Part shown: positions 2,520 through 38,751 of the stretch, piece by piece
Layout: each line of letters opens with the position of its first letter
Numbering within the stretch: position 1 is the first letter of the stretch
Sequence record: MK327933.1
DNA: 64,000 nt
DNA from: Escherichia phage vB_EcoM_G2285
Reading direction: 5' to 3' (one strand)
Notes under the pieces: generated by a model
Databases searched by the model: none
What the model saw: the letters and a program-made list of their open reading frames with translations, nothing else
Told to the model about the DNA's origin: nothing
Program-made: the position numbers and the translations under genes

Positions 2520-3620
2520 TTACGCTGTGAAGATTTTATCCCACATCGCAACAACTGCATCTCGATTATACTTCTTCCATACTGCTTCAGCACGTTTAAC
2601 TCGAGCTTCGTATGTGTCAGTGAATTCTAATACAGCTTTTGTGTAAAGCGCAACTACTTCTTTCTTAGGAGTAGAGGAATCAATTTCTACACGCACAGTA
2701 TCTGGGTCGTATTCGAATGTCGCATGAGGATAATCCTTAAAAACTAACTGGATTACAGGGACACCTTTAGAGATGGCTTCAATAGAACTATTCTCTACTG
2801 TACCTGTGTCAGGACACGTATTAATAAGTGCTTTAGCTGTTTTAAGACGTTCCATGATTTCACTGTGTGGAGCATCAATAATAACAGGATATTTAGCTGG
2901 TGGTGCCCATTTACTAGGACAATAACCAATACCATTTTCGCCTAGTGCTTTAATCGCTTCAAGAGCAACATCAGTACGACGCATTTTAGTGTCATAACGT
3001 TGTGCACTAATAATCAGATCAGTCGCCGGAAGAACTTCAGGTTTCTCATTCAAACAAATAACCGGATAATCTTCGGCTTCAAACAACGGATTTGCTCGCC
3101 AATAATCATAATCGATTTTGTCAGTCAGACCTGAAGTCATATAACAATATTTGCGTTCAAATTCACGGAAGGCTTTAGTAGGAGCATAACTCTTACCACC
3201 ATTCTTATGAATTTGAATAGTCTGGTCCCAAATTTGAACAATGCCGCGAGATACCGGTTCAAATGGTGTTGCCATAAAATTCTTATGAACTTTAGAGAGA
3301 CCTGCGTCTTTAATTGCCTGAACGGTTAGTTTAGTCGGTTCCATAGTAACAACAAAATCGTATTCATGGATGCCGGCTAGTTCAACAATCTTACGAGCCA
3401 TAGTATAACTCATACCTAGACTGAATTTAGTCAGATGACCAACAGGATGGTGTGTAACTTTCCAGTCACCAAACGTGTCATTATCAAAGCCGATATAATC
3501 AATATCAGCACCGATGGACACAAGATATTTCAACACATTTAAATGTACTGCTTCAAGACCACCTTGTACACGGTCAGGATTAAATGGGACCGCACGAGAT
3601 GGGATAAACATAACTTTCAT
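2520..3620 (-). CDS. GT-B (GT4-like) glycosyltransferase, candidate DNA sugar transferase
   Basis: 366 aa; C-terminal E-x7-E-type motif TVENSSIEAISKGVPVI typical of GT4 donor-binding domain; N-terminal MKVMFIP..GG..A Rossmann start. Confidence 0.65.
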   Translation of the reverse strand: MKVMFIPSRAVPFNPDRVQGGLEAVHLNVLKYLVSIGADIDYIGFDNDTFGDWKVTHHPVGHLTKFSLGMSYTMARKIVELAGIHEYDFVVTMEPTKLTVQAIKDAGLSKVHKNFMATPFEPVSRGIVQIWDQTIQIHKNGGKSYAPTKAFREFERKYCYMTSGLTDKIDYDYWRANPLFEAEDYPVICLNEKPEVLPATDLIISAQRYDTKMRRTDVALEAIKALGENGIGYCPSKWAPPAKYPVIIDAPHSEIMERLKTAKALINTCPDTGTVENSSIEAISKGVPVIQLVFKDYPHATFEYDPDTVRVEIDSSTPKKEVVALYTKAVLEFTDTYEARVKRAEAVWKKYNRDAVVAMWDKIFTA

Positions 3621-6159: not shown

Positions 6160-6180
6160 AAAGGTATTCTATCGTCCGAA

Positions 6181-6208
6181 ATCTAAAGCAAAAAGGGCCG
6201 AAGCCCTT
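6181..6208 (-). terminator. rho-independent terminator
   Basis: minus strand AAGGGC-TTCG-GCCCTT followed by TTTTGCTTT; overlaps stop of upstream ORF. Confidence 0.6.
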
Positions 6209-6632
6209 ATTTAAATTTAATTTTCTGAAGTGCATCAATTGCAGCTAAACGCCCTTGTTCACTTTTAACTGTAATGACCACATCGCCTGATATGATCACC
6301 GAGCCATCAACAAATTCTATAGAGCCTTTTTTGAAATCGACAGCTGTATCTGGTTCCTGAACTTCTTCAAAGAATTTAAATTCTGCACCATAAAGCAGAA
6401 TATCGCCTTGCATACTATGAATAGTTCGGCCATAATCGCCTACGGCTTCTACAGCAATCATCGAAACGCCGTAACCAATCATCTCTTCCACAATAAAATC
6501 TTTGGACAATAAAGTAGTATGCAGATTAGTATTAAGACGTTTACCAGTCGTATTAAGAATTCTCAAGAAATTATCTTCTTGTCCTTTGATAATACGATAT
6601 TTCTTACCAACTTCAAAACCTTTAAAAGCCAT
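6207..6632 (-). CDS. hypothetical protein
   Basis: 141 aa ORF in minus-strand gene train. Confidence 0.5.
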   Translation of the reverse strand: MAFKGFEVGKKYRIIKGQEDNFLRILNTTGKRLNTNLHTTLLSKDFIVEEMIGYGVSMIAVEAVGDYGRTIHSMQGDILLYGAEFKFFEEVQEPDTAVDFKKGSIEFVDGSVIISGDVVITVKSEQGRLAAIDALQKIKFK

Positions 6633-6634
6633 AA

Positions 6635-6814
6635 TTAACCCTTCTTAAGTAAGTCGTAAAAACCACCGTTCACATGTTTAGGAGCAGAAACCCGACGAGT
6701 AGACAGACGATGACATTCAGGGCAAACATCGTTTTCTCGTTCAGAAATCCTTTTAATTTTTTCATATTCATGGCCACAATCTTCAGATTGGCATTTATAG
6801 TCGTATAACGGCAT
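6635..6814 (-). CDS. zinc-ribbon protein (FmdB-like CxxC...CxxC), 59 aa, absent from ORF track
   Basis: hand translation [59 protein letters not shown]; two CxxC pairs. Confidence 0.6.
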   Translation of the reverse strand: MPLYDYKCQSEDCGHEYEKIKRISERENDVCPECHRLSTRRVSAPKHVNGGFYDLLKKG

Positions 6815-7227
6815 TATTGTTCCTTAAAGTGAGCTTTCAACATTTGATACAAAGACCATGCCTGGTCATTATTTTCGATAGTAATAGTCATCACAGGAAA
6901 TTCAGACAATTCGCCAAGTTCACCAGAATCTTGCTCTTCAGGCGCTTGATACGGATTTTCAACTTCGTCAAAGAATTCTGCTTCATTCGTGGAGAGCCAG
7001 ATAAAGTTTTCATCAAGGATATCACCGCCTGTTGCGTATCCAACCATGCCAGTAGATGTCACAATTTTAGTAGGACGACCAAGATGGTCAACATCTAATA
7101 CTTTAAATGGTTCCATGCCAAGACGTCGTGCATAAATCCCATTATCAGTGTGGTCTTTAATAAACTCTTCTTGGGCACGTTTATCTTTAAATTGGTACCA
7201 TGAGTTAACGCGGAATTTATTAGCCAT
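6814..7227 (-). CDS. hypothetical protein
   Basis: ORF; start chosen at ATG overlapping upstream stop (TAATG). Confidence 0.45.
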
Positions 7228-7454
7228 TAGTAAGTTTCCTTCCAATAAGTTGTACCGTTTTCAGTGATTTCACGGAAGATACCATAGATAGGCATTTCAT
7301 CGCCGAGTTTTTCGTAAACGTAAACCACTTCAGTGTAGCATAAAAATTCAGCCCAGTTTTTCTGTACAACAACTAAATCAGGATTAAACAGAACATCTTC
7401 AAACTCATCGATGTTTGAATCAGTAGTTACGTTTTTAATGATTTGACGTTTCAT
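7227..7454 (-). CDS. hypothetical protein
   Basis: start set at internal ATG with SD AGAGGAGAA; track N-terminal extension runs through the promoter. Confidence 0.45.
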
Positions 7455-7482
7455 AATATTCTCCTCTTGTTTTGATAGGTCT

Positions 7483-7511
7483 ATAGTATCATAGACCATA
7501 GTTGTTGTACA
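7483..7511 (-). promoter_or_regulatory. early-type promoter (-35 TGTACA, 17 bp, -10 TACTAT)
   Basis: minus strand TGTACA-N17-TACTAT then AGACCTATCAAAACAAGAGGAG..ATG. Confidence 0.45.
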
Positions 7512-8036
7512 TCATTTTAGCAAAATAAAATCAACTTGTTCAGCCAATGAACGTCTAAACATTAATTGACAACTTCCGAGGATGAAATCAGGTGCTTCAT
7601 AGACCGCGATGTAGTATCCTTTAGCTTTCAAGAGTTCAACATCCACCTGGTCATCAAACCATGCATAAACCGCGTCAACACTTTCAAATCCAAAATAGAA
7701 CCCTTGAGCCCAATCTTCGTTCAATTCAAATGTGTGCTCAATTCTATAGTATCTTAAGATATTTTGTTCAAGGAGTTTGTCTTCATTTACTGTAGGACGA
7801 TTAGGGACATTATAGTTGTCGCCGTGATGGTAGAAGTTACCTGAGATTATTCCATGTTTATCAAGGAACTCCCATGTTTCTTCAGAGTTGTCGGTGCCCG
7901 ACCAACCGTATGGCGAGCGAGGTTCTTTATTCCAAGAGGTTTCCCAAATTCTGACGGCTTTACCGTCTTCAATAGCAATTCCTGGTAATGATTCACGTTG
8001 AGTACAAAAACTACGTTCTACGCGGTAAACTAACAT
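7512..8036 (-). CDS. hypothetical protein
   Basis: 174 aa ORF with SD GAGGAGAA upstream. Confidence 0.5.
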   Translation of the reverse strand: MLVYRVERSFCTQRESLPGIAIEDGKAVRIWETSWNKEPRSPYGWSGTDNSEETWEFLDKHGIISGNFYHHGDNYNVPNRPTVNEDKLLEQNILRYYRIEHTFELNEDWAQGFYFGFESVDAVYAWFDDQVDVELLKAKGYYIAVYEAPDFILGSCQLMFRRSLAEQVDFILLK

Positions 8037-14920: not shown

Positions 14921-15442
14921 TCAGTAACCATTATCCTGGCGTTCAAAGTTGTGTTGGTTTTTCAAGTAATACAGTTTAAAGATTTCTTCAGCAGAAAGAC
15001 CTAGACCTTGGAACATATTCAGAACAAAGTGGAGGATATCAATCATCTCGAATTTAATTTCAAGCTGGTCTTCAGGGGACAGTTCATCGATACGACGATT
15101 ACGATATTCAGCATGTTGTGCTTTCCATGGCTTCCATACAGAGCTAGCGGCTTTTTCACCATTGCTCATACCACCAAGTGAAGTCAGCAGTTCACGGAAT
15201 TCATCATCAATATAATCTTTCTGATTACGCAACCAATCAACAACATCACCAGCAGTGGCCAATTCATCAGGATGTTTGTTATGTTCAGGCTTGTCATTTG
15301 CCAGACGAACCTGTAAAGATTTCTGCATATCAAGCATTACCTGCAGTGGGTCTTTATCTTCGTGAATCAGAGCATTAAAATAAGCTTCTTCTGCTTTATC
15401 AACACCAGAAATAAGTTGTGAACATTCGTTAAAGTGCGCCAT
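14921..15442 (-). CDS. 56: dCTP pyrophosphatase (dCTPase/dUTPase, MazG-like)
   Basis: MAHFNECSQ.. and C-terminal LYYLKNQHNFERQDNGY resemble T4 gp56. Confidence 0.8.
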   Translation of the reverse strand: MAHFNECSQLISGVDKAEEAYFNALIHEDKDPLQVMLDMQKSLQVRLANDKPEHNKHPDELATAGDVVDWLRNQKDYIDDEFRELLTSLGGMSNGEKAASSVWKPWKAQHAEYRNRRIDELSPEDQLEIKFEMIDILHFVLNMFQGLGLSAEEIFKLYYLKNQHNFERQDNGY

Positions 15443-15531
15443 TATTTTTCCTTTCAATTCAGTATAAGAGAGTTAATTCTAACATTAATTTTATAAAGCG
15501 TAATAAATAATAAGGTAACTAAGGAGATATT

Positions 15532-23212: not shown

Positions 23213-23310
23213 TGTATTTTTCCATAGGCATCATTATATTTTACTCATGTTTAAAAGATAAGATGATTATATACTAAGGGTTATACAGCATTTAAAACTT
23301 TAAATGGCTC

Positions 23311-23859
23311 TTAACGAGCCCATTTGATGATTTCTGTAATCAAATCATTACGTTCGCTTGCATTAAATCCTATAACTTTGTTAGCACCATCATGATTAAG
23401 TAATTGATACGTTTGGATTTCGTTATGAATTGCAAACTCTTCAAAATATGAAATGACTGTATTAAAACCGAATGAAGACAAAGTAATAAGGTCGTCTTCA
23501 AAACTTTCAGTCATTTCGTTACGTGTTAAAATAATTGTGAACACATCATGGTTTTGGCAAAGACGAACATAATCCTGTTCATAAACGTCAAGAACCGAGT
23601 CCGCATCTTGTCGAATACGTCCATAAACCCAGTTACTAATATATCCACGGTCTAACAGATAAATCTTAGTAGGGTCTAAATAATTCAACATCGTTTCGAA
23701 ACAACCAACTTCATTTCGAGACTTAACATCGAAACGTCCATCAACTGTTCGTTTAGGGAAATCAATCTTTACATATCTTTCACTAATTTCCATTATGTCA
23801 TTAATGAAAGTTGTTTTACCAGCATTATCCGGGCCATCTACTAAAATAATTTTAGCCAT
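23311..23859 (-). CDS. P-loop nucleotide kinase-like protein (dNMP/thymidylate-kinase fold)
   Basis: 182 aa; Walker A VDGPDNAGKTT, downstream LLDRGY (DRY-like) motif. Confidence 0.5.
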   Translation of the reverse strand: MAKIILVDGPDNAGKTTFINDIMEISERYVKIDFPKRTVDGRFDVKSRNEVGCFETMLNYLDPTKIYLLDRGYISNWVYGRIRQDADSVLDVYEQDYVRLCQNHDVFTIILTRNEMTESFEDDLITLSSFGFNTVISYFEEFAIHNEIQTYQLLNHDGANKVIGFNASERNDLITEIIKWAR

Positions 23860-23860
23860 T

Positions 23861-24760
23861 TTATTCCTCGATTACGACATCTTCATATTTAGGTATATTA
23901 TACGGTGAAGAAATTAAAGCATTAAAGTAGATGAACTCACCAAGACCTGGATGGAATACTTCTTCAGGATTTTCGAAATATTGAATCTTCGGACGTCCTT
24001 TAAGAATTTGATAGTACTCAGTTTTAGTTGGTTTAAAAATTCGAATCAGCGCTTCTTCAGGATACTTATTTCTGTCGAAGCTATTATTTGGATCGGTTAT
24101 ATAAAGCGGTTGACCTAATTGAATTGCACATTCAACCACTTGTTCAAAACGATAGCATGGGTCACTAATTCGAAACGGATGAAAAATACCATCTAGATGA
24201 ATAGGAGCCAAATCACCTACAAGACGCTGCATGATGGAAGGACGTATAACTTTCTGCGTTACGATAATCTTATTACCATCGGCACCAGCGTTAACCAGCA
24301 CTTCTTTTTGACGTTCATTCAACACAGTAGTTTGAAGTGAACGATTAACCGACAACATGTCGGTTTTTAAGAATTCGTCAATATAAAAACGTGGTTTATT
24401 AGGGTCTGCCGTGATATTGAAATTGAATTCCACATCAAAAGCGCCGTCATATCCAGTGATATCTGTGATTAGAAAATCACAATCATAATAAGCAATTAAT
24501 GAATCAACCACAAATTCATTTTCAGACCAGAAATATTTACGAGTGTTATACGCGTTATCTTTATACCATAATGGAACAAACTTAAATTCCGGGAAAAGAC
24601 GTTCGCATTCTTTAATATCAGATGCATTACGTGGATATGTAATCACATCACCTGGATTAGCACGGTGCAAATGAAGTTGGAAGTTGCCATCCTTAAGGAT
24701 AGCATACTGTCCAGTTTCATAAGACCGCATACTCAAGATTGGTACGCGGAAAATAGCCAT
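23861..24760 (-). CDS. hypothetical protein in the position of T4 beta-glucosyltransferase
   Basis: 299 aa; tightly coupled to flanking genes; no recognised motif. Confidence 0.5.
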   Translation of the reverse strand: MAIFRVPILSMRSYETGQYAILKDGNFQLHLHRANPGDVITYPRNASDIKECERLFPEFKFVPLWYKDNAYNTRKYFWSENEFVVDSLIAYYDCDFLITDITGYDGAFDVEFNFNITADPNKPRFYIDEFLKTDMLSVNRSLQTTVLNERQKEVLVNAGADGNKIIVTQKVIRPSIMQRLVGDLAPIHLDGIFHPFRISDPCYRFEQVVECAIQLGQPLYITDPNNSFDRNKYPEEALIRIFKPTKTEYYQILKGRPKIQYFENPEEVFHPGLGEFIYFNALISSPYNIPKYEDVVIEE

Positions 24761-25476
24761 TAGTCAAGGAATCCTTTAACATAATCAAAATCACGTTCAA
24801 ACACATGGGCACTTACCATGGTATGAGTATAATCACCAACTTCTACACCACATTCGTTAGCGATATAATGAAGTAATTTTCCTTGGAGATAAAAATCCAA
24901 CTGCATAACAACAGCACAGTTCTGGGAACGCATATGACAGTGGGTATAAAGCTTACCATCACGAATATAATAAGTCACTGAGTCAGTACATGGATATTCA
25001 AGCGTTTCGTCCGAATCAAGCAAAGCCTGATCAGAACTTTCTAGAATTTGGAACACAACTCTTCGAGAGTTAGGCTTCTCTTTAAGTTCTTTTAGAAGAG
25101 CTGGTAATTGGGCCGCAATGCGAGGACCATAGAAAGTGTTGAAGTTTGCCGGCAAAACATCTGATTTTGGTTTAGAAATAAATTTAGCGACATTAGGATA
25201 TGCCTTAAACGCTTCTTCTGCGTTGGTACCACCAGAAATCATAAACTTCCAGAAGTCTTCGGCATATTCATAAGAGATGCGGTTAATACGTGGGTCGGTC
25301 ATTTTGAATGATGATGGAGTGTCAACAACTACTGTCATAGACCCAATTTCATTACAACGTCCAATACGAGAATCAGTTACGAATTCCGGGTTTTCTAAAA
25401 TTTCACGATTGACTGCTTTAAAGGCGGTTTGAAAATCTGCGGCTTTGATATATTTCATTGTGTTATGTTTTCCCAT
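24760..25476 (-). CDS. thymidylate-synthase-family pyrimidine hydroxymethylase (gp42-like, divergent)
   Basis: 238 aa; NSRR, YPCTDS (catalytic Cys), HMRSQN blocks of TS/dCMP-hydroxymethylase fold; N-terminal half unlike recalled T4 gp42. Confidence 0.6.
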   Translation of the reverse strand: MGKHNTMKYIKAADFQTAFKAVNREILENPEFVTDSRIGRCNEIGSMTVVVDTPSSFKMTDPRINRISYEYAEDFWKFMISGGTNAEEAFKAYPNVAKFISKPKSDVLPANFNTFYGPRIAAQLPALLKELKEKPNSRRVVFQILESSDQALLDSDETLEYPCTDSVTYYIRDGKLYTHCHMRSQNCAVVMQLDFYLQGKLLHYIANECGVEVGDYTHTMVSAHVFERDFDYVKGFLD

Positions 25477-25505
25477 GTTTACCTCAATACAATTTATTAT
25501 ATACT

Positions 25506-25530
25506 CAATTCATAAAGCTTATTTGAATTT
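25506..25530 (-). promoter_or_regulatory. middle-promoter-like element (MotA-box-like AAGCTTTA, 11 bp, -10 TATAAT)
   Basis: minus AAGCTTTA-TGAATTGAGTA-TATAAT then GAGGTAAACATGG. Confidence 0.4.
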
Positions 25531-25653
25531 CTTAGCGATGTTGATATAACGTAAAGCTTCAGCATCAATACTTCCAAGAACACTATGAAGAAATGCATCA
25601 GCGTAGTATTACAATTGAACAGGTTCTTTAATCACTTTAGCCGCTTTGGTTTT

Positions 25654-25677
25654 AAAAAGGCCCATCAGGGCCTTTTT
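25654..25677. terminator. bidirectional rho-independent terminator
   Basis: perfect palindrome AAAAAGGCCC-ATCA-GGGCCTTTTT, T-runs on both strands. Confidence 0.7.
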
Positions 25678-25754
25678 AAGAATTTGTTCGTTAGTGTTCA
25701 GTTTCGTAGTCAAAATCTCTTCATTAAGTTGGTGGTTAAAAGTTTTTCTAGAAA

Positions 25755-26915
25755 TCATTCCGGGTACCTCAAAGCGTCATCAGAGTTAGTTATATCAATA
25801 ATAGATATAGAGTTTTCTGCTAACCCGGTTTTAGATAATTGACGTTTATAATATCTTTCACAATATGTACACGTCGTCCCGCAGATTTCATTAGCACAAT
25901 CGAAATCTGGATGTCTGAACCACCTTTTTTCTAAAAAGCCATCTAACAAAGAGGTTTCAATATTTACTGTATGTGAAAACTCTGTCTCATTTTCAAGAGT
26001 GAAAATGGTCTCTAAAGGCTTCCACAGTTCTAACAAATTACCTTCAAACTTTTCAGAAGCATAAGCTTCAAGAACTTTCAAAATGTAGTCTGTGCTACCT
26101 GTACGTCCTGAAACTTTGAATTGAGTGATACCAATATCATTATAAAGTTTCAAATCTTGAGGACGAACAAAACGAGTTCTCAACCAGTTAAATGGATCTG
26201 TATCACGAGCTTTAATACAGTGCTGCATTGGATATCCATTTAAAGATTTGGCATCATCAGCTGTAACATCAGTACTATGGAAAATATAGCAAGAGTCACG
26301 ATAACTACAATGTGTTGTATACCCTTTACCAGCATTAGAACAGAACTCATTTACAAGAACTTCAAATATTATATTGTTCTTATTGCAAAACTCTGCTGCA
26401 CGCTTCAGGAAAGAAACTGAACGGTTCTTATGAATTCCACAGCAGACCTTTTTGATATTATATTGGTCATGCAAGTATTTGATTTGAGTTACAGCATCGA
26501 CATGTAGAATTGTTGAAACTTCAATCTCAATATCTTTATTGACTTCACGAACAATTTCCATAACAACAGGGTTAGCGATAGTAATACGCCATACGCCTAT
26601 TGACCAAAGATACTGAACATAATCCTGAATAGCTTTCTTCTTCCACTCAACTAGTTCTCTTTTTGAACCAGGATTTATCGTGTTGAGTGTATAGTTAAAG
26701 CAAATACCTAATTCGTTACAACGTTTAACGTAATCTTCTAACATCTTTTTGTCAACGTCAGGAAGCCTAAAATCAGGTCTGGCTGCTACAAAAGCCATTT
26801 CTCTTGTAGAGCCGTATACTTCGTTTATCAAGCTATTAGGATAAGTTTTATTGAGCTCTACGATTTTATCAAGAAGAGCTAAATCAAAATTCGTTCCGAT
26901 TTTAAAAGTATTCAT
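25755..26915 (-). CDS. Cys-rich enzyme of unknown function (weak peptidase-U32-like resemblance)
   Basis: 386 aa; C-terminal C-x4-C-x3-C-x2-C cluster plus VCCG, CSNAG, HCSYRDSC. Confidence 0.5.
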   Translation of the reverse strand: MNTFKIGTNFDLALLDKIVELNKTYPNSLINEVYGSTREMAFVAARPDFRLPDVDKKMLEDYVKRCNELGICFNYTLNTINPGSKRELVEWKKKAIQDYVQYLWSIGVWRITIANPVVMEIVREVNKDIEIEVSTILHVDAVTQIKYLHDQYNIKKVCCGIHKNRSVSFLKRAAEFCNKNNIIFEVLVNEFCSNAGKGYTTHCSYRDSCYIFHSTDVTADDAKSLNGYPMQHCIKARDTDPFNWLRTRFVRPQDLKLYNDIGITQFKVSGRTGSTDYILKVLEAYASEKFEGNLLELWKPLETIFTLENETEFSHTVNIETSLLDGFLEKRWFRHPDFDCANEICGTTCTYCERYYKRQLSKTGLAENSISIIDITNSDDALRYPE

Positions 26916-26972
26916 TTTTTTTGCATCTCACGTTAATTGACGCGATGGTTTTTGCAGGTCTTACTTAAATTA

Positions 26973-27374
26973 TTATAGATTCGGTTTATACGATTTAAAT
27001 GTTTCGAATTCGCCTTTATTCATAAGAGCTTTGAATTCGTCAGGACGCATAGCTTTGTCGTCGATAATCCAATCATATACTGGTTTATGTGTTAGCAAAT
27101 TATGGTACTTCAAACCAATGTTTTCCAAGTTCTGAATCAGACTTGGGAGAATGTCAATTGCTATACGACCAGGACCTACTGACTTCATACCGCGAGCAGT
27201 GTAAAGCGTTATGGTATGCCCTGCATCATACAGGGCATTAATGGCAGACACCATTTCGACGTCAGGTTTGAAGTTCACGTAATCACGATTGTTATTCCAC
27301 TCTGTTATACAATCATCGACATCAAAACAAAGATTAAGCATGTTTTCTACACGGTGCATTAGATTCGTTCCCAT
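26973..27374 (-). CDS. HAD-superfamily phosphatase
   Basis: 133 aa; motif I LCFDVDDCIT (DxDx[TV]) near N-terminus; alternative start 27359 overlaps upstream stop. Confidence 0.6.
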   Translation of the reverse strand: MGTNLMHRVENMLNLCFDVDDCITEWNNNRDYVNFKPDVEMVSAINALYDAGHTITLYTARGMKSVGPGRIAIDILPSLIQNLENIGLKYHNLLTHKPVYDWIIDDKAMRPDEFKALMNKGEFETFKSYKPNL

Positions 27375-29044
27375 TGATGAGTGATATCGCCACCGATTGG
27401 ACGATAGGAAACACCAGTTTCTTTATCAGTTAGTACCCATTTACCAGGATTTTTTGTAATCAGAGTAGCCGTTACAGGTTCTGCTACGTCATAACTAATA
27501 GAGCCGTCCTGAAGTACACGGCCCATATTACGTAATTGCTTAGTCAGAAGTTCCATACCTTTATAATATGCGGCTACCGCTTTAAGTGGATTATTCTTAA
27601 AATAACCACCTAATGCAATCCAGATAATTGCCACTGCCAAATGATGATACTCGTTAAATGAACTCATCTTTCCATATTTGTAAACTAATGGATTGATGTT
27701 AATAGTCACATTACAAGTTGTTTCATCAATAGTAAACTGGCCCCAGGTCGGATTAGCGTTGAATTCATCATAACCTGAAACAGCATAAAGCACTTTAGCT
27801 TCATCATACAATTTTGGCCCGTAAATCTTGGTTTCGCCAAAATATCCACGAGGGTCGATAAACTTGACTTCGCCGTTATCAGTAATCATAGTATTACTGA
27901 AGTTCGGGTCACCATGAATAACAGAGTACTGTCCCTGAGAACGGTTATGATAGCGAATAAGATGTTCTAAAGCTTGTTTCAGCATTGGCTTCAGACGTCC
28001 AATCTTAGTGTAGTTCACATGTGTGATTTTACCAAATGAATCAATCAATGGTTGAATGCTTTCACAACGATCAATAACTTTCGTATAGAATTCTTTAGTG
28101 AAATCACGACGAACAGTTTCAGGACTTACAAAATAAGTGTCTGTGCTGAATTTCAGTGCATCTAAAATTGCATCAACAATTTGTGGACGAGCAAGACTTG
28201 ATTTGGATTTAATATATTCAAATGCCGGCTTACCTTTAATGCGTTCCATTTCAAAGTTATTTTCATTAACAGAAACTAACTGAGGAACTGAATCTGATTT
28301 CACTTTAAGATACCATGAAATCTCATCTTTCTGAAGAGCTCGACCTTGTTCGGTTAATGCGAATTTAGTTACAGTTTCTTCACCAATTTCAACTGCATTA
28401 AAACTACGATTAAGTTCACGAACTTCATGGGCCTTTTCAAGTTTAGGCATATCACCAAGGTCGATGATATTCATAAGCTCTGATTTATTGAATGCGCCGC
28501 TGTAAAGGAATTCTACGAAATCACGTCCTTTGCAGTATTCATGAATTTCCTCATCAGTAGAACCCATGTAGAATTCCCAGTCTTTGAACTGATAAATTCC
28601 TACAACATTACCACCTGTTGAACCTACGTTAGTGATATTTTCACCGTCGAAATTATATCGACATTCGTCACCCTTAACATAGATTGCGTTAACATTCCAA
28701 GACCATGAACCAAAATCTGGAATAATATCACACCAGTTAACAATTACGTTATGGCCGTCTAAATCTTTGTGTAATTTAGCAAGAGCATAAGCAGAACCAT
28801 ACGCTTCATCAACTGTACGAATAGTCACATTGAACCCTTCTTGCTCACAATAAGCTCGAACAGTTTCAGCAAATTTTGAATGAACTACTACAATAATTTC
28901 ATCTGCGCCAAGGTCAGAATAAATTGTATACAAATTGCTCAGAATAGTGTCTTGTTTATAGTTAACAAGCACCTTGGGAATATGATGCGTTATTGGATAT
29001 AAACGAGTTGCCAGACCAGCACCAAGAATAACAGCTTTTTTCAT
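27359..29044 (-). CDS. bifunctional sugar-phosphate nucleotidyltransferase / APH-like kinase
   Basis: 561 aa; N-terminal ILGAGLATRL NTP-transferase motif; C-terminal VIHGDPNFSN..IDPRG kinase catalytic-loop-like motif. Confidence 0.6.
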   Translation of the reverse strand: MKKAVILGAGLATRLYPITHHIPKVLVNYKQDTILSNLYTIYSDLGADEIIVVVHSKFAETVRAYCEQEGFNVTIRTVDEAYGSAYALAKLHKDLDGHNVIVNWCDIIPDFGSWSWNVNAIYVKGDECRYNFDGENITNVGSTGGNVVGIYQFKDWEFYMGSTDEEIHEYCKGRDFVEFLYSGAFNKSELMNIIDLGDMPKLEKAHEVRELNRSFNAVEIGEETVTKFALTEQGRALQKDEISWYLKVKSDSVPQLVSVNENNFEMERIKGKPAFEYIKSKSSLARPQIVDAILDALKFSTDTYFVSPETVRRDFTKEFYTKVIDRCESIQPLIDSFGKITHVNYTKIGRLKPMLKQALEHLIRYHNRSQGQYSVIHGDPNFSNTMITDNGEVKFIDPRGYFGETKIYGPKLYDEAKVLYAVSGYDEFNANPTWGQFTIDETTCNVTININPLVYKYGKMSSFNEYHHLAVAIIWIALGGYFKNNPLKAVAAYYKGMELLTKQLRNMGRVLQDGSISYDVAEPVTATLITKNPGKWVLTDKETGVSYRPIGGDITHQWERI

Positions 29045-29085
29045 GTTGAAGTCCTCATTGGTAAGTAGGAGTATTGTACACTATT

Positions 29086-29229
29086 CTAGTTAAAGCATTC
29101 ATACTTTGCTTGTAGTCCAATCATAATCCATCCAATCACAAGTGTTGGAATCATTACCGGAGCCGTTAAGCTCCAGTAGATAGTCATGAAAAGCATCAAT
29201 AGTAAAAGTCCTATTGTTATTGCTTTCAT
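29086..29229 (-). CDS. 47 aa hydrophobic membrane peptide, absent from ORF track
   Basis: hand translation MKAITIGLLLLMLFMTIYWSLTAPVMIPTLVIGWIMIGLQAKYECFN; ATGA overlap with upstream stop. Confidence 0.4.
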   Translation of the reverse strand: MKAITIGLLLLMLFMTIYWSLTAPVMIPTLVIGWIMIGLQAKYECFN

Positions 29230-29861
29230 TGTTCGCCTCGTAACATGGCACCTAGTGCACCGCCTGGATGGAACTTAAGGAAGTCATTAGAGGTAAATCC
29301 ACGTTCAGACGAAAGGTTGATAGCAAACGTATCGATAAGCGCTAACAACAATGTAGTTGACATCGTCGGAGCTAAAGAGTTCTCGTCAACTTCTACCGCG
29401 ATACCGGTACAGAACGTATAATCAAAAAGAGCTTCGTATTCTTGTGGAATGTCTGGGTTACAATGCAACAGAATCTGTTTGACGTTCGGACGAATCATTT
29501 TAAGATGCTTAGCCACGCCTATCATTTCTTCAGTCTTACCAGAACGACTGATGTGAACTAATACATCATTAGGTGCAATAAATCCTGCATCACCGTGAGA
29601 ATAATGCCCAGTGTTCAAGTACATACTCGGGATACCGAGTGAAGCAAATGTCTCAGAAGCTTTAGTTGCGATATTAGCATTCTTACCAACACCTGTAATA
29701 ATTACTCGGCTTTCATAATTACTAAGTCCAGGGCGTCGAAGAGTTTCTAGAATAGCATTATAACGAGCAGGGTTTTGACTAATTACTTCGGCCATAGTGG
29801 CCAAAGAAGAAGCTTGTTTTATGATTGCGTCAATAGCGATAGTAATAGGAGTAGTTTTCAT
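29226..29861 (-). CDS. SIS-domain sugar-phosphate isomerase (arabinose-5-phosphate isomerase-like)
   Basis: 211 aa; ITGVGKNANIATK, HGDAGFI, ISRSGKTEE, APTMSTT, FHPGGALG match KdsD/GutQ SIS-domain blocks. Confidence 0.7.
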   Translation of the reverse strand: MKTTPITIAIDAIIKQASSLATMAEVISQNPARYNAILETLRRPGLSNYESRVIITGVGKNANIATKASETFASLGIPSMYLNTGHYSHGDAGFIAPNDVLVHISRSGKTEEMIGVAKHLKMIRPNVKQILLHCNPDIPQEYEALFDYTFCTGIAVEVDENSLAPTMSTTLLLALIDTFAINLSSERGFTSNDFLKFHPGGALGAMLRGEQ

Positions 29862-29901: not shown

Positions 29902-30905
29902 TCAAAAATCGAACATATCGAACAGAGATGCTTTCTTCTCGTAATCGAGTTTCGCTGCTGATGTGAATCCTTCAAGTGGTTTAATAAATGTCTTCTCAAG
30001 GAGAACAGTGTAGTCCATCCAATGAAGTACATCGTCTTTAATTAAATCTGTGATTTCAGTACCAGAAGGCCATGCGATACATTTATCACCGAATGGGTTT
30101 CCTTCACGTAAAGGCAGAACATATACTTTTTCACCTTCTACAACTTGCGGTGCATCGATATTACCTTTGATAGCCCGGTTATACGTCAGAATTCCACGAA
30201 TATGGAACGGGCATTTAGGACCAGGGAATCCACCGACGTCATATTTAGCAATGTTATTCGCAGAAGATACCGACGCGATGCTAATATAATTCAATTGACG
30301 GAATTCTTTTTCAAACTCTTTAAAATATTCTTGTAATGATTCTTCGCCTTCCTGAAGCATACGACGAATACATTCCTTAAGAGCTTTCTGTACTGCTTTA
30401 GGAGTCGAAGATTTCTGAGTCTCTAGACCCATGATTTTAAGCTTAGGTTCAGCGTATCTGGTTCCTTCCATATCCCACACGTTTAATGCATAACGTTTCT
30501 TACCAGTCCAGAATCCACCAATACCTTTAGAACCAAGCGGAGGACCAGCAATAGCTTCTCGGTCCATGAACATCAAATGTTGTTTATTGTTCATGTATTC
30601 ACACATTTCACGGAAACCTCTATCAATAGCTGGTTCCATACGTTCACGTGCAAACTTATCTAAGAAGTCTACCCAATGGTTGGTATCACGGAATTTAGAT
30701 TCACCAACCTTATCAATAATTTTATCTGCAGATACGTAAATGGAGTCTGTATCACCATAAAGAACGAAAGCTTCACCTTCTGTACCACAAACTTCATTCA
30801 GATATTCATTAACTTTACGTTCAATCCACTGTAAAGCCATTTGACCAAATGTTGTGATTGCAGTAGCATTACGCAAATCGTAATAACGGAACCAAACGTT
30901 ACCCA
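29902..30905 (-). CDS. 43: DNA polymerase gp43, cistron B exon 2 (palm/thumb, YGDTDS)
   Basis: translation from GNVWFRYYDLRNATAIT through YGDTDS to ..FDMFDF matches recalled RB69/T4 gp43 C-terminus; 5' boundary set at inferred splice site. Confidence 0.85.
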
Positions 30906-31137
30906 CATTATGTTCGACTGAGGTCGTTAATCTCAGCCCGGAATTATATCCAGCTGCATGTCGCCATGCAGAGCAGACTATATCATCATCTTTATAGATG
31001 CTATGCGCTTCCACCCACTTGGGCGTACTCCTTTCGGATAGTCGTTGCACGTTCCTCATAGAGGCTTCGCTCAGGATTGTCTACTAGAGATGTCCCCTGA
31101 ATTCACATAGTTTAAAGTGCGCCGAGTTATTTGGTTA
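30906..31137 (-). ncRNA. group I intron (td/nrdD-like, ORF-less, 232 nt) in gene 43
   Basis: interrupts motif B codons (..LYGAL | GNVWF..); core elements CTCTAGTAGACAATCC and GATATAGTCTGCTCTGCATGGCGACATGCAGC; starts TAA after exon U, ends ..CATAATG. Confidence 0.75.
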
Positions 31138-31306
31138 ACGCACCATACAGACTATTAATAAGCAATTTACGGTTAATCTGAGCCGTATTACCTGCTACTT
31201 CAGCCAATTCGCAGTTTTTAAGATGTTGTTCTAAATCAGCTTTGCTTAAGGACTTGAGATAAGAAATTTCATCTTGTGAAAAGTCTTGAGTGTATGTTAA
31301 ATTCAT
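31138..31306 (-). CDS. 43: DNA polymerase gp43, cistron B exon 1 (motif B)
   Basis: ATG overlapping HEG stop (TAATG); encodes MNLTYTQDF..NTAQINRKLLINSLYGA, the polymerase K-x3-NSxYG region. Confidence 0.7.
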
Positions 31307-32127
31307 TATATTTTATTCCTACAGTTATCAAAGTGCCAACGTTTCATACCAGATAATATACCTTCTTTACCACAGTGCGGACACGTTGCTTTAATCTCTT
31401 TAGCTTTAGCCCAGTATTCTTTCTTAGAGTCTGAAAGGGCCTTATTATGGGCTTCCGAATTGGTTTTGCCTAATCTTGTTTTAACTATATTAGGATTCTC
31501 TGAAATTCTTTGCTTCATCCTAGAAGACTGTTTAGAACGTTGTTCTTTCGACCAGCCATCAGATAAAACTTTCTTTTGTTCTTCAGTTTTGGTTGTACCG
31601 AAGAGATGGGATTTATTTTTAGAATAGTATTCTTTGAGACCTATAGATTGTTTTAACGAAGTTTCAGCAGAATGCTTTGTTCCTATTTTATTTTTACTTG
31701 CTACAGCCCAATTGGCTGCTGCTATGGCTTTATACTTTTCAGGATTTTTGGCTATAGTGATTTTAATAGAATCTGAAACCTTTTTAGCAATCTCTTGGGA
31801 CTTCATAGGATTTGGTAGATTTAAAGAATTTACATAATCCCAACCGCCTTTACCACCAGGATTAAGATTATATGTATCATTTCTTTTTACAAAATCTTTA
31901 TCTACAATTTTAGCTTCAAGGGCATAAGCTTCATCTTCATTATCGAATACTTCCAAAATGGTCTTTTGGAGATTTTCTATACCGTATTTTTCAACGGCTG
32001 CTTTAACAACAGGTCCAGAACCGCGGTAAATATCGTTTTGATTAGACTCATCACACTTATGAACACCTACATAAATTTTACCATTAACGACATTAGTAAT
32101 TTGGTAAACAGTATAAACAGTTTTCAT
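31306..32127 (-). CDS. GIY-YIG homing endonuclease inserted within gene 43
   Basis: VYQITNVVNGKIYVGV GIY-YIG motif; C-terminal CPHCG..MKRWHFDNC zinc finger; start set at ATG with SD GGAGG. Confidence 0.75.
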   Translation of the reverse strand: MKTVYTVYQITNVVNGKIYVGVHKCDESNQNDIYRGSGPVVKAAVEKYGIENLQKTILEVFDNEDEAYALEAKIVDKDFVKRNDTYNLNPGGKGGWDYVNSLNLPNPMKSQEIAKKVSDSIKITIAKNPEKYKAIAAANWAVASKNKIGTKHSAETSLKQSIGLKEYYSKNKSHLFGTTKTEEQKKVLSDGWSKEQRSKQSSRMKQRISENPNIVKTRLGKTNSEAHNKALSDSKKEYWAKAKEIKATCPHCGKEGILSGMKRWHFDNCRNKI

Positions 32128-32153
32128 AATATCCTCCATTAGTTGATAAGACT

Positions 32154-32183
32154 ATAATACCACATCCTTGTGGTATTGTAAAC
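32154..32183 (-). promoter_or_regulatory. early-type promoter for the intragenic endonuclease
   Basis: minus GTTTAC-N18-TATTAT then AGTCTTATCAACTAATGGAGGATATTATG. Confidence 0.45.
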
Positions 32184-33703
32184 TATTTTGAAGCCAAAAT
32201 CTCTTTAATTATTTCAGCATTTCGCTGTGCAGCCAACATGTAGCGCTTATGTTCTTTACGCTGCAAGAATACCTTAGTGATTTCTGTTGGAATCACACCA
32301 TCACGGTCTTTATAATACATCATGCCGTTAGGAGAGCAACTGTACACATCTGAAGGACGTTCGGCGATTGCGTTAATATACTCATGCAGTGGAGCTACTT
32401 TAAACGTTCCTGCTATTGTTTCCGGGCTAATATTCACTTGGCGAATAATACTTGGATACAGAGATGTAAGGTCGAAACTCATTACATATTTGTATCGATT
32501 TGGAATAGGTTCCTTAACAAAAGCGCCAGGATAAGGTTGAACCGGGTGAGAACGACCTTGTGGAATCACCTTGTTCTGCTCTTTAAGGCTATTAAAAATA
32601 ATAGCATCCCATGTTTTAATTGGGCTAAACACAGATTGAATCTGTATCTTAGCATAATAACCCATGTCCAAGCTCAAGTTGATGAACTGACGCTTAGCAT
32701 CAATTTGCAATACACGATACACGTCGATAATGTTATAAGAAATATATCGTTGGTGATTGCTTTCACGAAGCTTAGAAATAGGGCCGTCATATTTCAGTTT
32801 ACCAACGTTCAATTCAAATTCTGAAATGTAATCCAGAGAATATGACGGTTGATTGGTAAAAGAGAATTTTTTGTAAAGGTCAATGTAATCAAGAACAGAG
32901 ATACCGAACAATGTAATGATTTCACGAGAACCATACATGTTTTCGATAACTTTAACACGAGTTTTACGATGTGGTGACAACCGTTTTGCTGTGGATTCGC
33001 CAAAAATATTCTTGATTCGGTTATACACATATGGAATATCAAATGACTCAACGTTCCATCCAGTCAAAATGACAGGAGTTTTCTGTTGCCAGAAGTTGAG
33101 ATATTCCATCAACAATTCTTTTTCGTTATCGAACGGCATATAAATGATTTTATCGATAATTTCAGATGGAACTTCATCACCGCCTTGTTCTTGAAGCTTA
33201 GCAGCGATTTCAATAGACCATTCTTCTACATTACCATACGGAGAATTCAATAGATCAAATACATAGAACCTGTCGTCAATTGAGTCATAATGGGTGATAG
33301 CATCAATCGGATGTTTTGCTTGTGACGGCTCAGGGAACCCATCCGGAGATGTTACTTCGATGTCGAAGTTAGCCACACGAATTTTTGTATGGTCGTATTT
33401 GATTTCATAGTTATAAGTGTCAGACAAATACGCCAATTTGAAATCGTCCATGCCAAGTGCTTCAAGTCCGATATCTTCCATGCGTTTAATCCATTGGGAG
33501 GCATCACGCATATTAGCGAACAGCTTACGAGTACACGGCTTACCGTAGATATCGAAATATTTCGTAGCCTGACTTTCTGGACAATGAGCAAACAGTGATG
33601 GTTTATATTCTACTTCACGAGTACGTTCACGGCCATTAGAATCGATGTAACGTTCAAAAATTGAATCACCAATCTGTTCAACCGTTAAGTAAAATTCTTT
33701 CAT
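32183..33703 (-). CDS. 43: DNA polymerase gp43, cistron A (N-terminal and 3'-5' exonuclease domains, motif A)
   Basis: 506 aa; MKEFYLTVEQIGDSIFERYID..FDIEV..YNIIDV..DLTSLYPSII matches recalled RB69 gp43 N-terminal half; ends at in-frame stop. Confidence 0.9.
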   Translation of the reverse strand: MKEFYLTVEQIGDSIFERYIDSNGRERTREVEYKPSLFAHCPESQATKYFDIYGKPCTRKLFANMRDASQWIKRMEDIGLEALGMDDFKLAYLSDTYNYEIKYDHTKIRVANFDIEVTSPDGFPEPSQAKHPIDAITHYDSIDDRFYVFDLLNSPYGNVEEWSIEIAAKLQEQGGDEVPSEIIDKIIYMPFDNEKELLMEYLNFWQQKTPVILTGWNVESFDIPYVYNRIKNIFGESTAKRLSPHRKTRVKVIENMYGSREIITLFGISVLDYIDLYKKFSFTNQPSYSLDYISEFELNVGKLKYDGPISKLRESNHQRYISYNIIDVYRVLQIDAKRQFINLSLDMGYYAKIQIQSVFSPIKTWDAIIFNSLKEQNKVIPQGRSHPVQPYPGAFVKEPIPNRYKYVMSFDLTSLYPSIIRQVNISPETIAGTFKVAPLHEYINAIAERPSDVYSCSPNGMMYYKDRDGVIPTEITKVFLQRKEHKRYMLAAQRNAEIIKEILASK

Positions 33704-38034: not shown

Positions 38035-38751
38035 ATGAATTATAACTCAATATACGAAAAGCTTATCACCAATGCTAAATCAAGAAGTTTAGATGGTTAT
38101 ACAGAACGTCATCACATTATACCACAATGTTTAGGTGGAAGTGATGATGCTTTAAACTTAGTAGACTTAACACCGGAAGAACATTATTTGGCACATCAAC
38201 TGTTGGTAAAAATCCATCCAGATAATGCCTCTTTAATATATGCTGCTCGTATGATGACTATCTCATCTCCTAAAGCAGATAGAAGCAAAAACAAATTATT
38301 TGGATGGCTTCGACGTAAGAATCAAGAAGTTCAAAAGAACAAAGAATTCACTGCTGAAACTCGTAAGAAAATGTCCGAGTCGGCAAAAAATAAACCAAAG
38401 ATTACATGTCCACACTGCGGTTTAACCGGCACTGAAGGAAACATGAGACGTTGGCATTTTGATAACTGTAAACAAGGCCCTACGCCTAAAATAGTAAAAC
38501 TTGATCAAGAAACAAAGGATAAAATAATTAAAACCATGGCCACGAAAATTTGGAAAGAAGATTCTTGCCCGTTTTGTGGCTTAACTACTAAGTTATCGGC
38601 GTTAAAGCCGCATATAAAATTCTGTAAATCAAATCCTAACAGAAAGAAAAAAGAGGACAAGAAAATTAAATGTCCTCATTGCGATAAAATAGGGATCCCT
38701 GCTAATATGCGTCGTTGGCATTTTGATAACTGTAAACATAAGCCTCATTAA
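38035..38751 (+). CDS. HNH homing endonuclease (Mob-like) with three zinc-finger repeats
   Basis: ERHHIIPQCLGGSDDALNLVDLTPEEHYLAH HNH motif; three CPHCG/CPFCG..MRRWHFDNCK repeats; plus strand among minus genes. Confidence 0.8.
   Translation: MNYNSIYEKLITNAKSRSLDGYTERHHIIPQCLGGSDDALNLVDLTPEEHYLAHQLLVKIHPDNASLIYAARMMTISSPKADRSKNKLFGWLRRKNQEVQKNKEFTAETRKKMSESAKNKPKITCPHCGLTGTEGNMRRWHFDNCKQGPTPKIVKLDQETKDKIIKTMATKIWKEDSCPFCGLTTKLSALKPHIKFCKSNPNRKKKEDKKIKCPHCDKIGIPANMRRWHFDNCKHKPH

Follow-up and report, generated by a model that had tools for sequence, protein, structure and literature searches.

What does an enzyme of the thymidylate synthase (TS) family do amid replication genes that are highly conserved with those of T4, which base does it act on, and by which chemistry? 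The question is raised by a 238-residue ORF of the window, by which we mean the whole stretch of DNA analysed here (64,000 nucleotides), which comes from an RB69-like phage (Mosigvirus) and covers its first 64 kb. The product of this ORF is 25% identical to T4 gp42 over 218 aa, versus 86, 80, 68, 79, 74, 78 and 64% identity to T4 for the gp41, gp40, UvsX, RegA, gp62, gp44 and gp43 encoded in the same window. The original prediction, made from the DNA alone, had drawn attention to this contrast, which our comparison confirms; the ordinary full-length identity to gp42 that it had itself named as the finding that would speak against it is absent. Chains of T4 gp42 (whose structure we take to be PDB 1B5E) do not appear among the 60 best phmmer matches of the protein in PDB sequences, and ThyA and MilA are among those 60. 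The features of the window that are relevant to the question are collected in Table 1.

Table 1. Location of the TS-family gene and of genes with related or neighbouring functions in the window, with the assignment of each product.
Feature	Position	Strand	Basis of assignment
Second DNA arabinosyltransferase (RB69 gp3 orthologue)	2520..3620	-	99.2% to RB69p003; role PMC13326640
dCTPase/dCDPase (gp56-like)	14921..15457	-	97.7% to Bas47 'dCTPase / dCDPase'; PHROG 173
Thymidylate-kinase-like nucleotide kinase (RB69 gp45)	23311..23859	-	PHROG 761; 99.5% to RB69p045
DNA arabinosyltransferase 1 (RB69 gp46:47, single ORF)	23861..24760	-	99-100% to RB69p046 and RB69p047; role PMC13326640
Predicted TS-fold flavin/O2-dependent dCMP 5-hydroxylase (5hodCMP synthase)	24760..25476	-	238 aa; RB69 gp48 / HY126 AfhB orthologue
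Small ORF, RB69 ORF049c family	25519..25758	-	PHROG 8601
Peptidase-U32-family Fe-S protein (RB69 gp50)	25755..26915	-	Pfam PF01136, 42.2 bits (cutoff 22.4)
HAD-type sugar phosphatase (RB69 gp51 / AfhF-like), UDP-arabinofuranose synthesis	26973..27374	-	TIGR01689; 98% to RB69p051; PMC13326640
Bifunctional sugar-1-phosphate nucleotidyltransferase and sugar kinase (RB69 gp52:53 / AfhE-like)	27359..29044	-	98-99.7% to RB69p052 and RB69p053, one ORF here; N-terminal Pfam NTP_transferase, weak kinase matches at C-terminus; role PMC13326640
KpsF/GutQ-type arabinose-5-phosphate isomerase (RB69 gp55)	29226..29861	-	TIGR00393 and KdsD models; SIS domain; 97.6% to RB69p055

The ORF is a genuine gene and not a chance ORF; its exact protein sequence belongs to a protein cluster of 157 members and recurs across many phage genomes. 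The product is a member of the TS superfamily, with a match to the Pfam family Thymidylat_synt (PF00303) at 56.9 bits (gathering cutoff 24.3) and Foldseek matches to TS and MilA structures (TM 0.7-0.84). The blocks NSRR (residues 136-139), YPCTDS (161-166, with Cys163 as its cysteine) and HMRSQN (181-186) lie where the original prediction had placed them, and the TS fold and nucleophilic cysteine that it had deduced from these blocks are borne out. It had also described the N-terminal part as divergent, and indeed the Pfam model misses everything before residue 122: because the match reaches residues 122-235 only, the N-terminal half is divergent even by the standard of the family model. The full length of the ORF is spanned by PHROG 160. 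Neither T4 gp42 nor E. coli ThyA, used as tblastn queries, revealed a second TS-family gene in the window, the sole match being this ORF. In databases, the protein is labelled 'thymidylate synthase' in many records and 'dCMP hydroxymethylase' in several.

Its key residues are Cys163, Glu160, Asn186, Asp194, Arg138/Arg139, Tyr116 and His224. Across a set of 35 homologous sequences, reaching down to 52% identity, Cys163 (ThyA Cys146), Glu160 (ThyA Leu143), Asn186 (the N of the HMRSQN block, aligned to ThyA Asp169, which equals gp42 Asp171) and Asp194 (aligned to ThyA Asn177 and gp42 Asp179) are all invariant. The base-discriminating position was thus the correct site to examine, as originally suggested, but the accompanying claim that dCMP and dUMP could not be told apart from sequence has to be revised: the position at which ThyA and dUMP hydroxymethylases carry the Asn of uracil specificity is occupied by Asp194, which specifies cytosine as the base. 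Together with the catalytic Cys163 and the acidic Glu160 at the Leu143 position, it makes up the set of residues of a cytosine-type enzyme, and the substrate base is readable from the sequence, which predicts cytosine. That the protein acts on dUMP instead, as a thymidylate synthase or dUMP hydroxymethylase with thymine as the modified base, is suggested by the Pfam match and by the many database labels, yet is extremely improbable given this invariant Asp, the dCMP complexes among the crystal entries of the family, and the fact that cytosine is the modified base in RB69 DNA.

The chemistry can be approached through the closest characterised relatives, RB69 gp48 and phage HY126 AfhB (PDB 9iqc, 9ir2, 9iqu), which are 99% (236 of 238 residues) and 98% identical to the window protein, the latter value being that found for 9iqc and 9iqu; signature residues, gene cluster and genus are alike. 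Entry 9iqc is entitled 'Monooxygenase dependent on riboflavin with dCMP and FAD', and 9iqu 'phage HY126 dCMP hydroxylase-AfhB with substrate dCMP'. A structural model built from the alignment of the 35 homologues (pLDDT 87) superposes on 9iqc with a TM of 0.94; it was used instead of a single-sequence AlphaFold model, which was discarded (mean pLDDT 37.6). The protein differs from RB69 gp48 by two conservative substitutions, one at residue 85 (Asn here, whereas RB69 and no fewer than 90% of the homologues have Asp) and the other at Val107, and no functional difference is expected. The identical sequence is found in many viable phages.

According to the published biochemistry, co-expression of RB69 gp48 and the dNMP kinase in E. 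coli introduces 5-hydroxy-dC into the host DNA, label from 18O2 appears in the product, and the protein, yellow when purified, gives off a flavin resembling FMN; with O2 and flavin, not methylene-tetrahydrofolate, this family turns dCMP into 5-hydroxy-dCMP (PMC13326640). The identity of the flavin differs by source, FAD/riboflavin in the PDB titles versus FMN-like in PMC13326640. In two jumbo-phage-like contigs, a gene of the Flavodoxin_2 (FMN reductase) family lies directly upstream of the hydroxylase homologue, and this neighbour offers independent, supportive context for flavin use. He et al. 2026 (Nat Chem Biol), said to be the key structural paper, reportedly likewise has dCMP converted to 5-hydroxy-dCMP by O2 and flavin. 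The enzyme is thus already known, from a PDB release in July 2025, a bioRxiv preprint in June 2025, and articles in NAR and Nat Chem Biol in 2026. We conclude, with a probability of roughly 95%, that the ORF encodes the dCMP 5-hydroxylase known as RB69 gp48 or HY126 AfhB, an enzyme with a TS fold in which folate has been swapped for flavin; for the window protein itself, flavin binding and an O2-derived hydroxyl at C5 of dCMP are predicted from the 99%-identical RB69 protein and the PDB titles.

A conventional but diverged dCMP hydroxymethylase of the T4 gp42 type (EC 2.1.2.8), which would produce 5-hydroxymethyl-dCMP with methylene-tetrahydrofolate, is very unlikely in comparison, even if the resemblance is considerable. 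The ORF lies between uvsX and gene 43, just as gene 42 does in T4, its product shares with gp42 the TS fold, the nucleophilic Cys, the cytosine-reading Asp (gp42 Asp179) and an acidic side chain where ThyA has Leu143, and several records carry the corresponding label; a paper of 2018 on RB69 reportedly also took the protein for a dCMP hydroxymethylase. Yet identity to gp42 is just 25%, and where gp42 has the folate-contacting Asp171 (ThyA Asp169), the window protein has Asn186, a replacement found in every clade member examined. An Asn at this position (D169N) is the published diagnostic of the hydroxylases (PMC13326640). Moreover, PDB entries are titled flavin-dependent monooxygenase or hydroxylase, and the 5-hydroxy-dC of RB69 was chromatographically distinct from the 5-hydroxymethyl-dC of T4 gp42 in the same experiment (PMC13326640), so that this reading is already contradicted by published data. 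The original prediction had framed the question as one of hydroxymethylation of dCMP versus dUMP, a frame that does not accommodate the 5-hydroxy-dCMP made by the 99%-identical RB69 orthologue. Because this orthologue uses O2 and flavin, not methylene-tetrahydrofolate, the assay with the latter that had been suggested would probably show no hydroxymethylation.

Outside the family, the nearest solved fold is that of MilA, the CMP 5-hydroxymethylase of mildiomycin biosynthesis (PDB 5jnh, 5b6d; TM 0.84, 23% identity), which is cytosine-specific and has Asp at both key positions, but differs in its ribonucleotide substrate and in taking a one-carbon unit from folate. The C-terminal catalytic half of E. 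coli ThyA (EC 2.1.1.45) is 30% identical over 115 aa. Equivalents of ThyA Arg126/127, Cys146, Arg166, Ser167 and His207 are kept in the window protein, whereas Asn177 is replaced by Asp, Asp169 by Asn, Leu143 by Glu, His147 by Thr and Tyr209 by Phe, and the N-terminal half is unrecognised by the Pfam model.

The genomic context is that of glycosylated 5-hydroxycytosine. The whole arabinosylation cluster of RB69 (gp45-gp55) is present, along with gp3 and the dCTPase, at 97-100% identity, and thus the hydroxylase gene is surrounded by genes for glycosyltransferases, UDP-arabinose synthesis and dCTP removal (Table 1). Arabinosyltransferase 1 lies at the position of the T4 beta-gt gene and has no detectable similarity to T4 beta-gt. 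RB69 gp45 has been entered as 'nucleotide kinase' (PMC13326640). Further along, gene 43 is split, with a putative intron in the region 31170-30954, and the polymerase may consist of two polypeptides (43A and 43B).

A reaction scheme for the dCMP 5-hydroxylase may be proposed on these grounds. By analogy with TS-family chemistry, the thiolate of Cys163 would attack C6 of the pyrimidine and render C5 nucleophilic. Asp194 would read N3/N4 of cytosine and dCMP would therefore be the substrate, as shown by the alignment and the titles of 9iqc and 9iqu. In place of an attack on methylene-tetrahydrofolate, C5 would then acquire an O2-derived oxygen via a reduced flavin that is loosely bound; for this step, the origin of the oxygen from O2 and the binding of flavin have been published, and a flavin-hydroperoxide intermediate is what we infer in the present analysis. 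Once the C5 proton has left and Cys163 has been expelled, 5-hydroxy-dCMP would be free, to be converted into the diphosphate by the phage dNMP kinase, as published for RB69, then into the triphosphate, and to be incorporated by the phage DNA polymerase, following the general scheme for modified pyrimidines (PMC13326640). Following the pathway published for RB69, the dCTPase/dCDPase would clear dCTP; it would at the same time feed dCMP to the hydroxylase. In the same pathway, the two arabinosyltransferases would transfer arabinofuranose from UDP-arabinose, supplied by the products of genes 26973-29861, onto the 5-OH in DNA, and the outcome would be arabinosyl-5-hydroxycytosine DNA that resists restriction enzymes.

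A further reading concerns the neighbouring gene of the peptidase U32 family, and would complement the dCMP 5-hydroxylase explanation without replacing it: the TS-fold enzyme could operate in air, and the U32 Fe-S protein could provide the 5-hydroxyl from prephenate in anoxia. There is precedent in the U32 proteins RlhA (ho5C2501 in 23S rRNA), TrhP (ho5U34 in tRNA) and UbiU/V, which are involved in hydroxylations that depend on prephenate and need no O2 (PMC5727448, PMC6599085, PMC10990095). The window protein contains the Pfam U32 domain, above threshold, as well as 10 Cys that are invariant in 25 homologues, and hhalign places its Cys203/Cys209 on the essential Cys169/Cys176 of RlhA (probability 78%), with a spacing one residue shorter. 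Its hhalign match to TrhP is not significant (probability 6%), and phmmer found no match for it in PDB sequences. A MAFFT alignment with E. coli UbiU, UbiV, TrhP and RlhA has a gap at the canonical Cys pair and suggests its deletion; this alignment is unreliable and at odds with the hhalign result for RlhA, and the equivalence of the two Cys pairs is tentative. Beyond U32 membership, the window protein differs from RlhA, TrhP and UbiU-UbiV in its low identity (15-23%), its shorter Cys-Cys spacing and an extra C-terminal Cx4Cx3Cx2C motif.

The distribution of U32 genes also bears on this idea. In 56 records of related phages, the hydroxylase gene is adjoined by a gene for an AroQ chorismate mutase, an enzyme that makes prephenate; at the inspected loci this gene sits between the hydroxylase and U32 genes, in Entb_45 directly between both. 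U32 occurs in 221 phage records, the itemised host genera of which all belong to Enterobacterales or are Shewanella (seven minor genera are not itemised), and within these itemised genera the hosts are facultative anaerobes throughout. At the Acinetobacter, Rhizobium and Pseudomonas loci inspected, the hydroxylase is present without U32. Metagenomic U32 homologues (48-59% identity) lie amid genes for dCMP deaminase, kinase, UDG, NT5C and dNK, and in two metagenomic contigs such a homologue is found beside homologues of the glycosyltransferase and kinase of the window, and a TS-like gene is absent within 7-8 kb. Metagenomic phages with such kinase-glycosyltransferase-U32 modules may rely on U32 alone.

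These observations lead us to propose, tentatively, that the U32 protein is a putative O2-independent, prephenate-dependent C5-hydroxylase of deoxycytidylate (or of DNA cytosine), and the division of labour between two routes is an idea to which we give somewhat less than even odds. Against it stand the Mosigviruses, the window included, which have no chorismate mutase gene, E. coli phages such as JS10 that possess the hydroxylase without U32, the departure of the Cys spacing from the canonical U32 motif, and the guess of a 'sugar or heterocycle reductase' for this protein in PMC13326640. Within the accessible literature, the scope of which excludes He et al. 2026 and Mahler et al. 2025, an anaerobic U32/chorismate mutase route is not mentioned.

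The hydroxylase/U32 locus of the window contains no chorismate mutase gene. In the small ORF located there, codon 50 (25609-25611) is an in-frame TAA in place of the GAA of RB69 and Bas47, and the ORF is cut at this point. The idea that RB69 ORF049c might be a chorismate mutase that has diverged was considered and rejected, as this ORF has neither a Pfam/NCBIfam match nor BLAST similarity to the chorismate mutase of Entb_45, and as both genes are found adjacent to each other in Yersinia phage TG1 and Serratia phage 92A1.

The dCMP 5-hydroxylases represent a remarkable enzyme family, in which the fold of a folate-dependent one-carbon transferase has turned into a flavin monooxygenase, and one that founds a class of glycosylated 5-hydroxycytosine DNA blocking restriction enzymes, with relevance to phage therapy and DNA-modification tools. 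The common labels 'thymidylate synthase' and 'dCMP hydroxymethylase' are wrong for this ORF, the DNA of the phage should be regarded as arabinosyl-5-hydroxycytosine DNA, and the D169N rule permits the automatic re-annotation of such genes. The U32/chorismate mutase module may bear on how an O2-requiring modification pathway serves phages that replicate in the anoxic gut. If the proposal is true, 5-hydroxycytosine would be reached in phages of facultative anaerobes through the flavin/O2 enzyme where air is present and through U32 where the gut is anoxic, in parallel to the pairings of TrhO/TrhP for tRNA and UbiIHF/UbiUV for ubiquinone.

Two of the three catalytic blocks expected of a thymidylate synthase (TS) family enzyme, NSRR (residues 136-139) and YPCTDS (161-166), and the third, HMRSQN (181-186), were all located in the hydroxylase ORF as the original prediction had claimed, and its suspicion that the product is not a T4-type gp42 proved correct. 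The protein shows no ordinary full-length identity to T4 gp42 (25% over 218 aa) and is 30% identical to E. coli ThyA over 115 aa, versus 64-86% identity to T4 for the neighbouring replication proteins (gp41 86%, gp40 80%, RegA 79%, gp44 78%, gp62 74%, UvsX 68%, gp43 64%). The Pfam TS model covers residues 122-235 only (56.9 bits), so that the N-terminal half, also singled out beforehand as divergent, is atypical even within the superfamily. Neither T4 gp42 nor E. coli ThyA, as tblastn query, found a second TS-like gene in the window.

The explanation was published in 2025-2026, with structures solved, and the finding is already known. The region 23300-27400 is 98-98.6% identical to ∼150 Mosigvirus (RB69-like) genomes and rIIA opens the window as it does the RB69 record, which makes the window look like the initial 64 kb of the genome of an RB69-like phage. 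The hydroxylase shares 236 of its 238 residues with RB69 ORF048c/gp48, is matched at 100% identity by a protein cluster of 157 members, and was paired by phmmer against PDB sequences with 9iqc/9ir2 and 9iqu (98% identity). Its AlphaFold model (35 homologues as input, pLDDT 87.2) was closest in Foldseek to 9iqc (TM 0.94), with the CMP hydroxymethylase MilA next (TM 0.84) and ordinary thymidylate synthases after it. In the PDB, 9iqc is titled "Monooxygenase dependent on riboflavin with dCMP and FAD", while 9iqu bears the title "phage HY126 dCMP hydroxylase-AfhB with substrate dCMP"; both were released on 2025-07-16.

The DNA of RB69 and of Acinetobacter phage DLP3 contains arabinosylated 5-hydroxycytosine, with the sugar ether-linked straight to C5 (Lee et al., NAR 2026, PMC13326640). 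In the same study, expression of RB69 gp48 with the phage dNMP kinase yielded 5-hydroxy-dC in E. coli DNA, the product was labelled by 18O2, and the purified protein was yellow and released an FMN-like flavin; He et al. (Nat Chem Biol 2026) is cited there for the flavin-containing HY126 crystal structure and in vitro reconstitution. For the orthologue, the literature shows a dCMP substrate, an O2-derived oxygen and a bound flavin. The diagnostic signature proposed for 5-hydroxy-dC makers is an Asn at the position of ThyA Asp169, and nine out of nine diverse homologues carrying it made 5-hydroxy-dC (PMC13326640).

Corresponding residues, from the alignment and motif positions
Hydroxylase	E. coli ThyA	T4 gp42
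Tyr116	Tyr94	Tyr96
Arg138/Arg139	Arg126/Arg127	Arg123/Arg124
Glu160	Leu143	Asp145
Cys163	Cys146	Cys148
Asn186	Asp169	Asp171
Asp194	Asn177	Asp179
His224	His207	His216
Phe226	Tyr209	Tyr218

All of 35 homologues, with identities as low as 52%, keep Cys163, Glu160, Asn186 and Asp194, and this set therefore settles the choice between dCMP and dUMP, which had been called undecidable from sequence: judging from these residues, and with Asp at the ThyA Asn177/gp42 Asp179 position, the base acted on is cytosine. The proposed TS/dCMP-hydroxymethylase fold stands as regards the TS fold (Pfam, Foldseek) and fails as regards the hydroxymethylase, the N of HMRSQN (Asn186) being the mark of a hydroxylase instead. 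By analogy with TS-family chemistry, Cys163 would add to C6 of dCMP, the activated C5 would attack a flavin-derived oxygen species in place of the methylene-folate iminium, and deprotonation with elimination of the Cys would give 5-hydroxy-dCMP. In two jumbo-phage-like metagenomic contigs (L017, 383 kb, at 6162-7708, and L018, 201 kb, at 6475-7681), the hydroxylase homologue is immediately preceded by a Flavodoxin_2 gene of the FMN reductase family, which fits both a two-component flavin monooxygenase arrangement and the "loosely bound" cofactor. An unannotated ORF of ∼350 aa and a small ORF follow, the latter with a faint thymidylate-kinase match in L017 only.

Features of the window discussed here
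Feature	Coordinates	Strand	Remarks
Second arabinosyltransferase (gp3)	2520-3620	minus	
dCTPase	14921-15457	minus	
Kinase (gp45)	23311-23859	minus	
Arabinosyltransferase 1 (gp46:47)	23861-24760	minus	one intact ORF
Hydroxylase ORF	24760-25476	minus	238 aa
RB69 ORF049c family ORF	25519-25758	minus	PHROG 8601
Peptidase-U32 family protein	25755-26915	minus	Pfam
Phosphatase	26973-27374	minus	
Bifunctional nucleotidyltransferase/kinase	27359-29044	minus	
Arabinose-5-phosphate isomerase	29226-29861	minus	
DNA polymerase gene 43 region	29902-33703	minus	broken up
Group I intron in gene 43	30954-31170	minus	Rfam RF00028, 83.6 bits
GIY-YIG homing endonuclease ORF	31306-32139	minus	inside gene 43 insert, after 43A
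Gene 43 part 43A	32183-33703	minus	ends at stop codon
Homing endonuclease ORF, gene 45/46 region	38035-38751	plus	238 aa; PHROG 655, E 1e-66

The dCTPase, the gp45 kinase, the two arabinosyltransferases, the phosphatase, the bifunctional nucleotidyltransferase/kinase and the isomerase make up the remainder of the modification pathway. The hydroxylase and arabinosyltransferase 1 fill the exact slots of gene 42 and beta-gt in the uvsX-gene 43 interval of T4, and no similarity of arabinosyltransferase 1 to T4 beta-gt was detectable. The arabinosyltransferase 1 gene and the bifunctional nucleotidyltransferase/kinase gene are each intact here and split in the RB69 record (ORF046/047, ORF052/053), in keeping with the published opinion that sequencing errors account for the RB69 splits. 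The small, conserved ORF049c-family ORF that separates the hydroxylase from U32 carries an in-frame TAA at codon 50 (25609-25611), where RB69 and Bas47 have GAA, indicating either a pseudogene in the phage or a sequencing error; its identification as a chorismate mutase was rejected.

In gene 43, ∼1.3 kb stands in place of RB69 residues 504-561; it contains a stop codon, the GIY-YIG ORF and a new ATG with an exon piece, as well as a group I intron that interrupts the SLYGALG polymerase motif. The 43B part starts at this ATG, its first ∼57 residues being 53% identical to RB69 (flanks 98%). The insert is absent from ∼150 other Mosigvirus records, and the intron has a counterpart of 95.5% identity in Escherichia phage PSD2002. 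The second endonuclease ORF lies on the strand opposite to all its neighbours and probably encodes a mobile endonuclease of the free-standing kind.

The U32 gene adjoining the hydroxylase locus has been presented only as a "sugar or heterocycle reductase", without any mention of U32 (PMC13326640). U32 proteins of known role, namely RlhA (5-hydroxycytidine in 23S rRNA; PMC5727448), TrhP (5-hydroxyuridine in tRNA; PMC6599085) and UbiU/V (anaerobic ubiquinone synthesis; PMC10990095), are Fe-S proteins needed in prephenate-dependent, O2-independent hydroxylations. The clade has 10 invariant Cys, and in hhalign (probability 78%) Cys203/Cys209 fall opposite Cys169/Cys176, the essential pair of RlhA, a pairing with which MAFFT disagrees. 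At 26915-26924 (minus strand) there is a run of eight A's, apparently one more than a 389-aa U32 requires, and the upstream ATG used for the 389-aa protein in other Mosigviruses is therefore out of frame; translation here would begin three codons later (386 aa).

U32 was found in 221 phage records, at identities of 80% or more throughout. Among the host genera itemised (all Enterobacterales or Shewanella, seven minor genera being left out), it is confined to phages of facultative anaerobes. The hydroxylase clade comprises 342 records, 57 of them Acinetobacter phages; U32 is absent from the inspected hydroxylase loci of Acinetobacter AB-Navy1, Rhizobium RHph_I46 and Pseudomonas PspYZU05, and is not among the genes listed for the published DLP3 cluster (PMC13326640). 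It is also absent from E. coli phage JS10, and is therefore accessory. In Kanagawavirus Entb_45, U32 and the hydroxylase are separated by a 79-aa ORF for an AroQ chorismate mutase (Pfam CM_2, 40.9 bits, cutoff 27), which aligns across nearly its whole length with the chorismate mutase in PDB entry 1ybz; 56 phage records have a homologue of it adjoining the hydroxylase gene. Metagenomic U32 homologues (48-59% identity) occur in deoxynucleotide gene contexts, for example immediately after a dCMP deaminase in PolIII-alpha jumbo-phage-like contigs, beside NT5C, dNK and nucleoside deoxyribosyltransferase genes, and beside a DAHP-synthase-family gene. Two such contigs, L015 and L016, lack a TS-like gene within 7-8 kb of U32 and carry homologues of the window's arabinosyltransferase near it, L016 also encoding a homologue of the window's kinase, a TAGT-like protein, a dUTPase/DCD and a UDP-galactopyranose mutase. 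We propose U32 as a candidate that may provide an anaerobic route to the 5-hydroxypyrimidine (5-hydroxycytosine).
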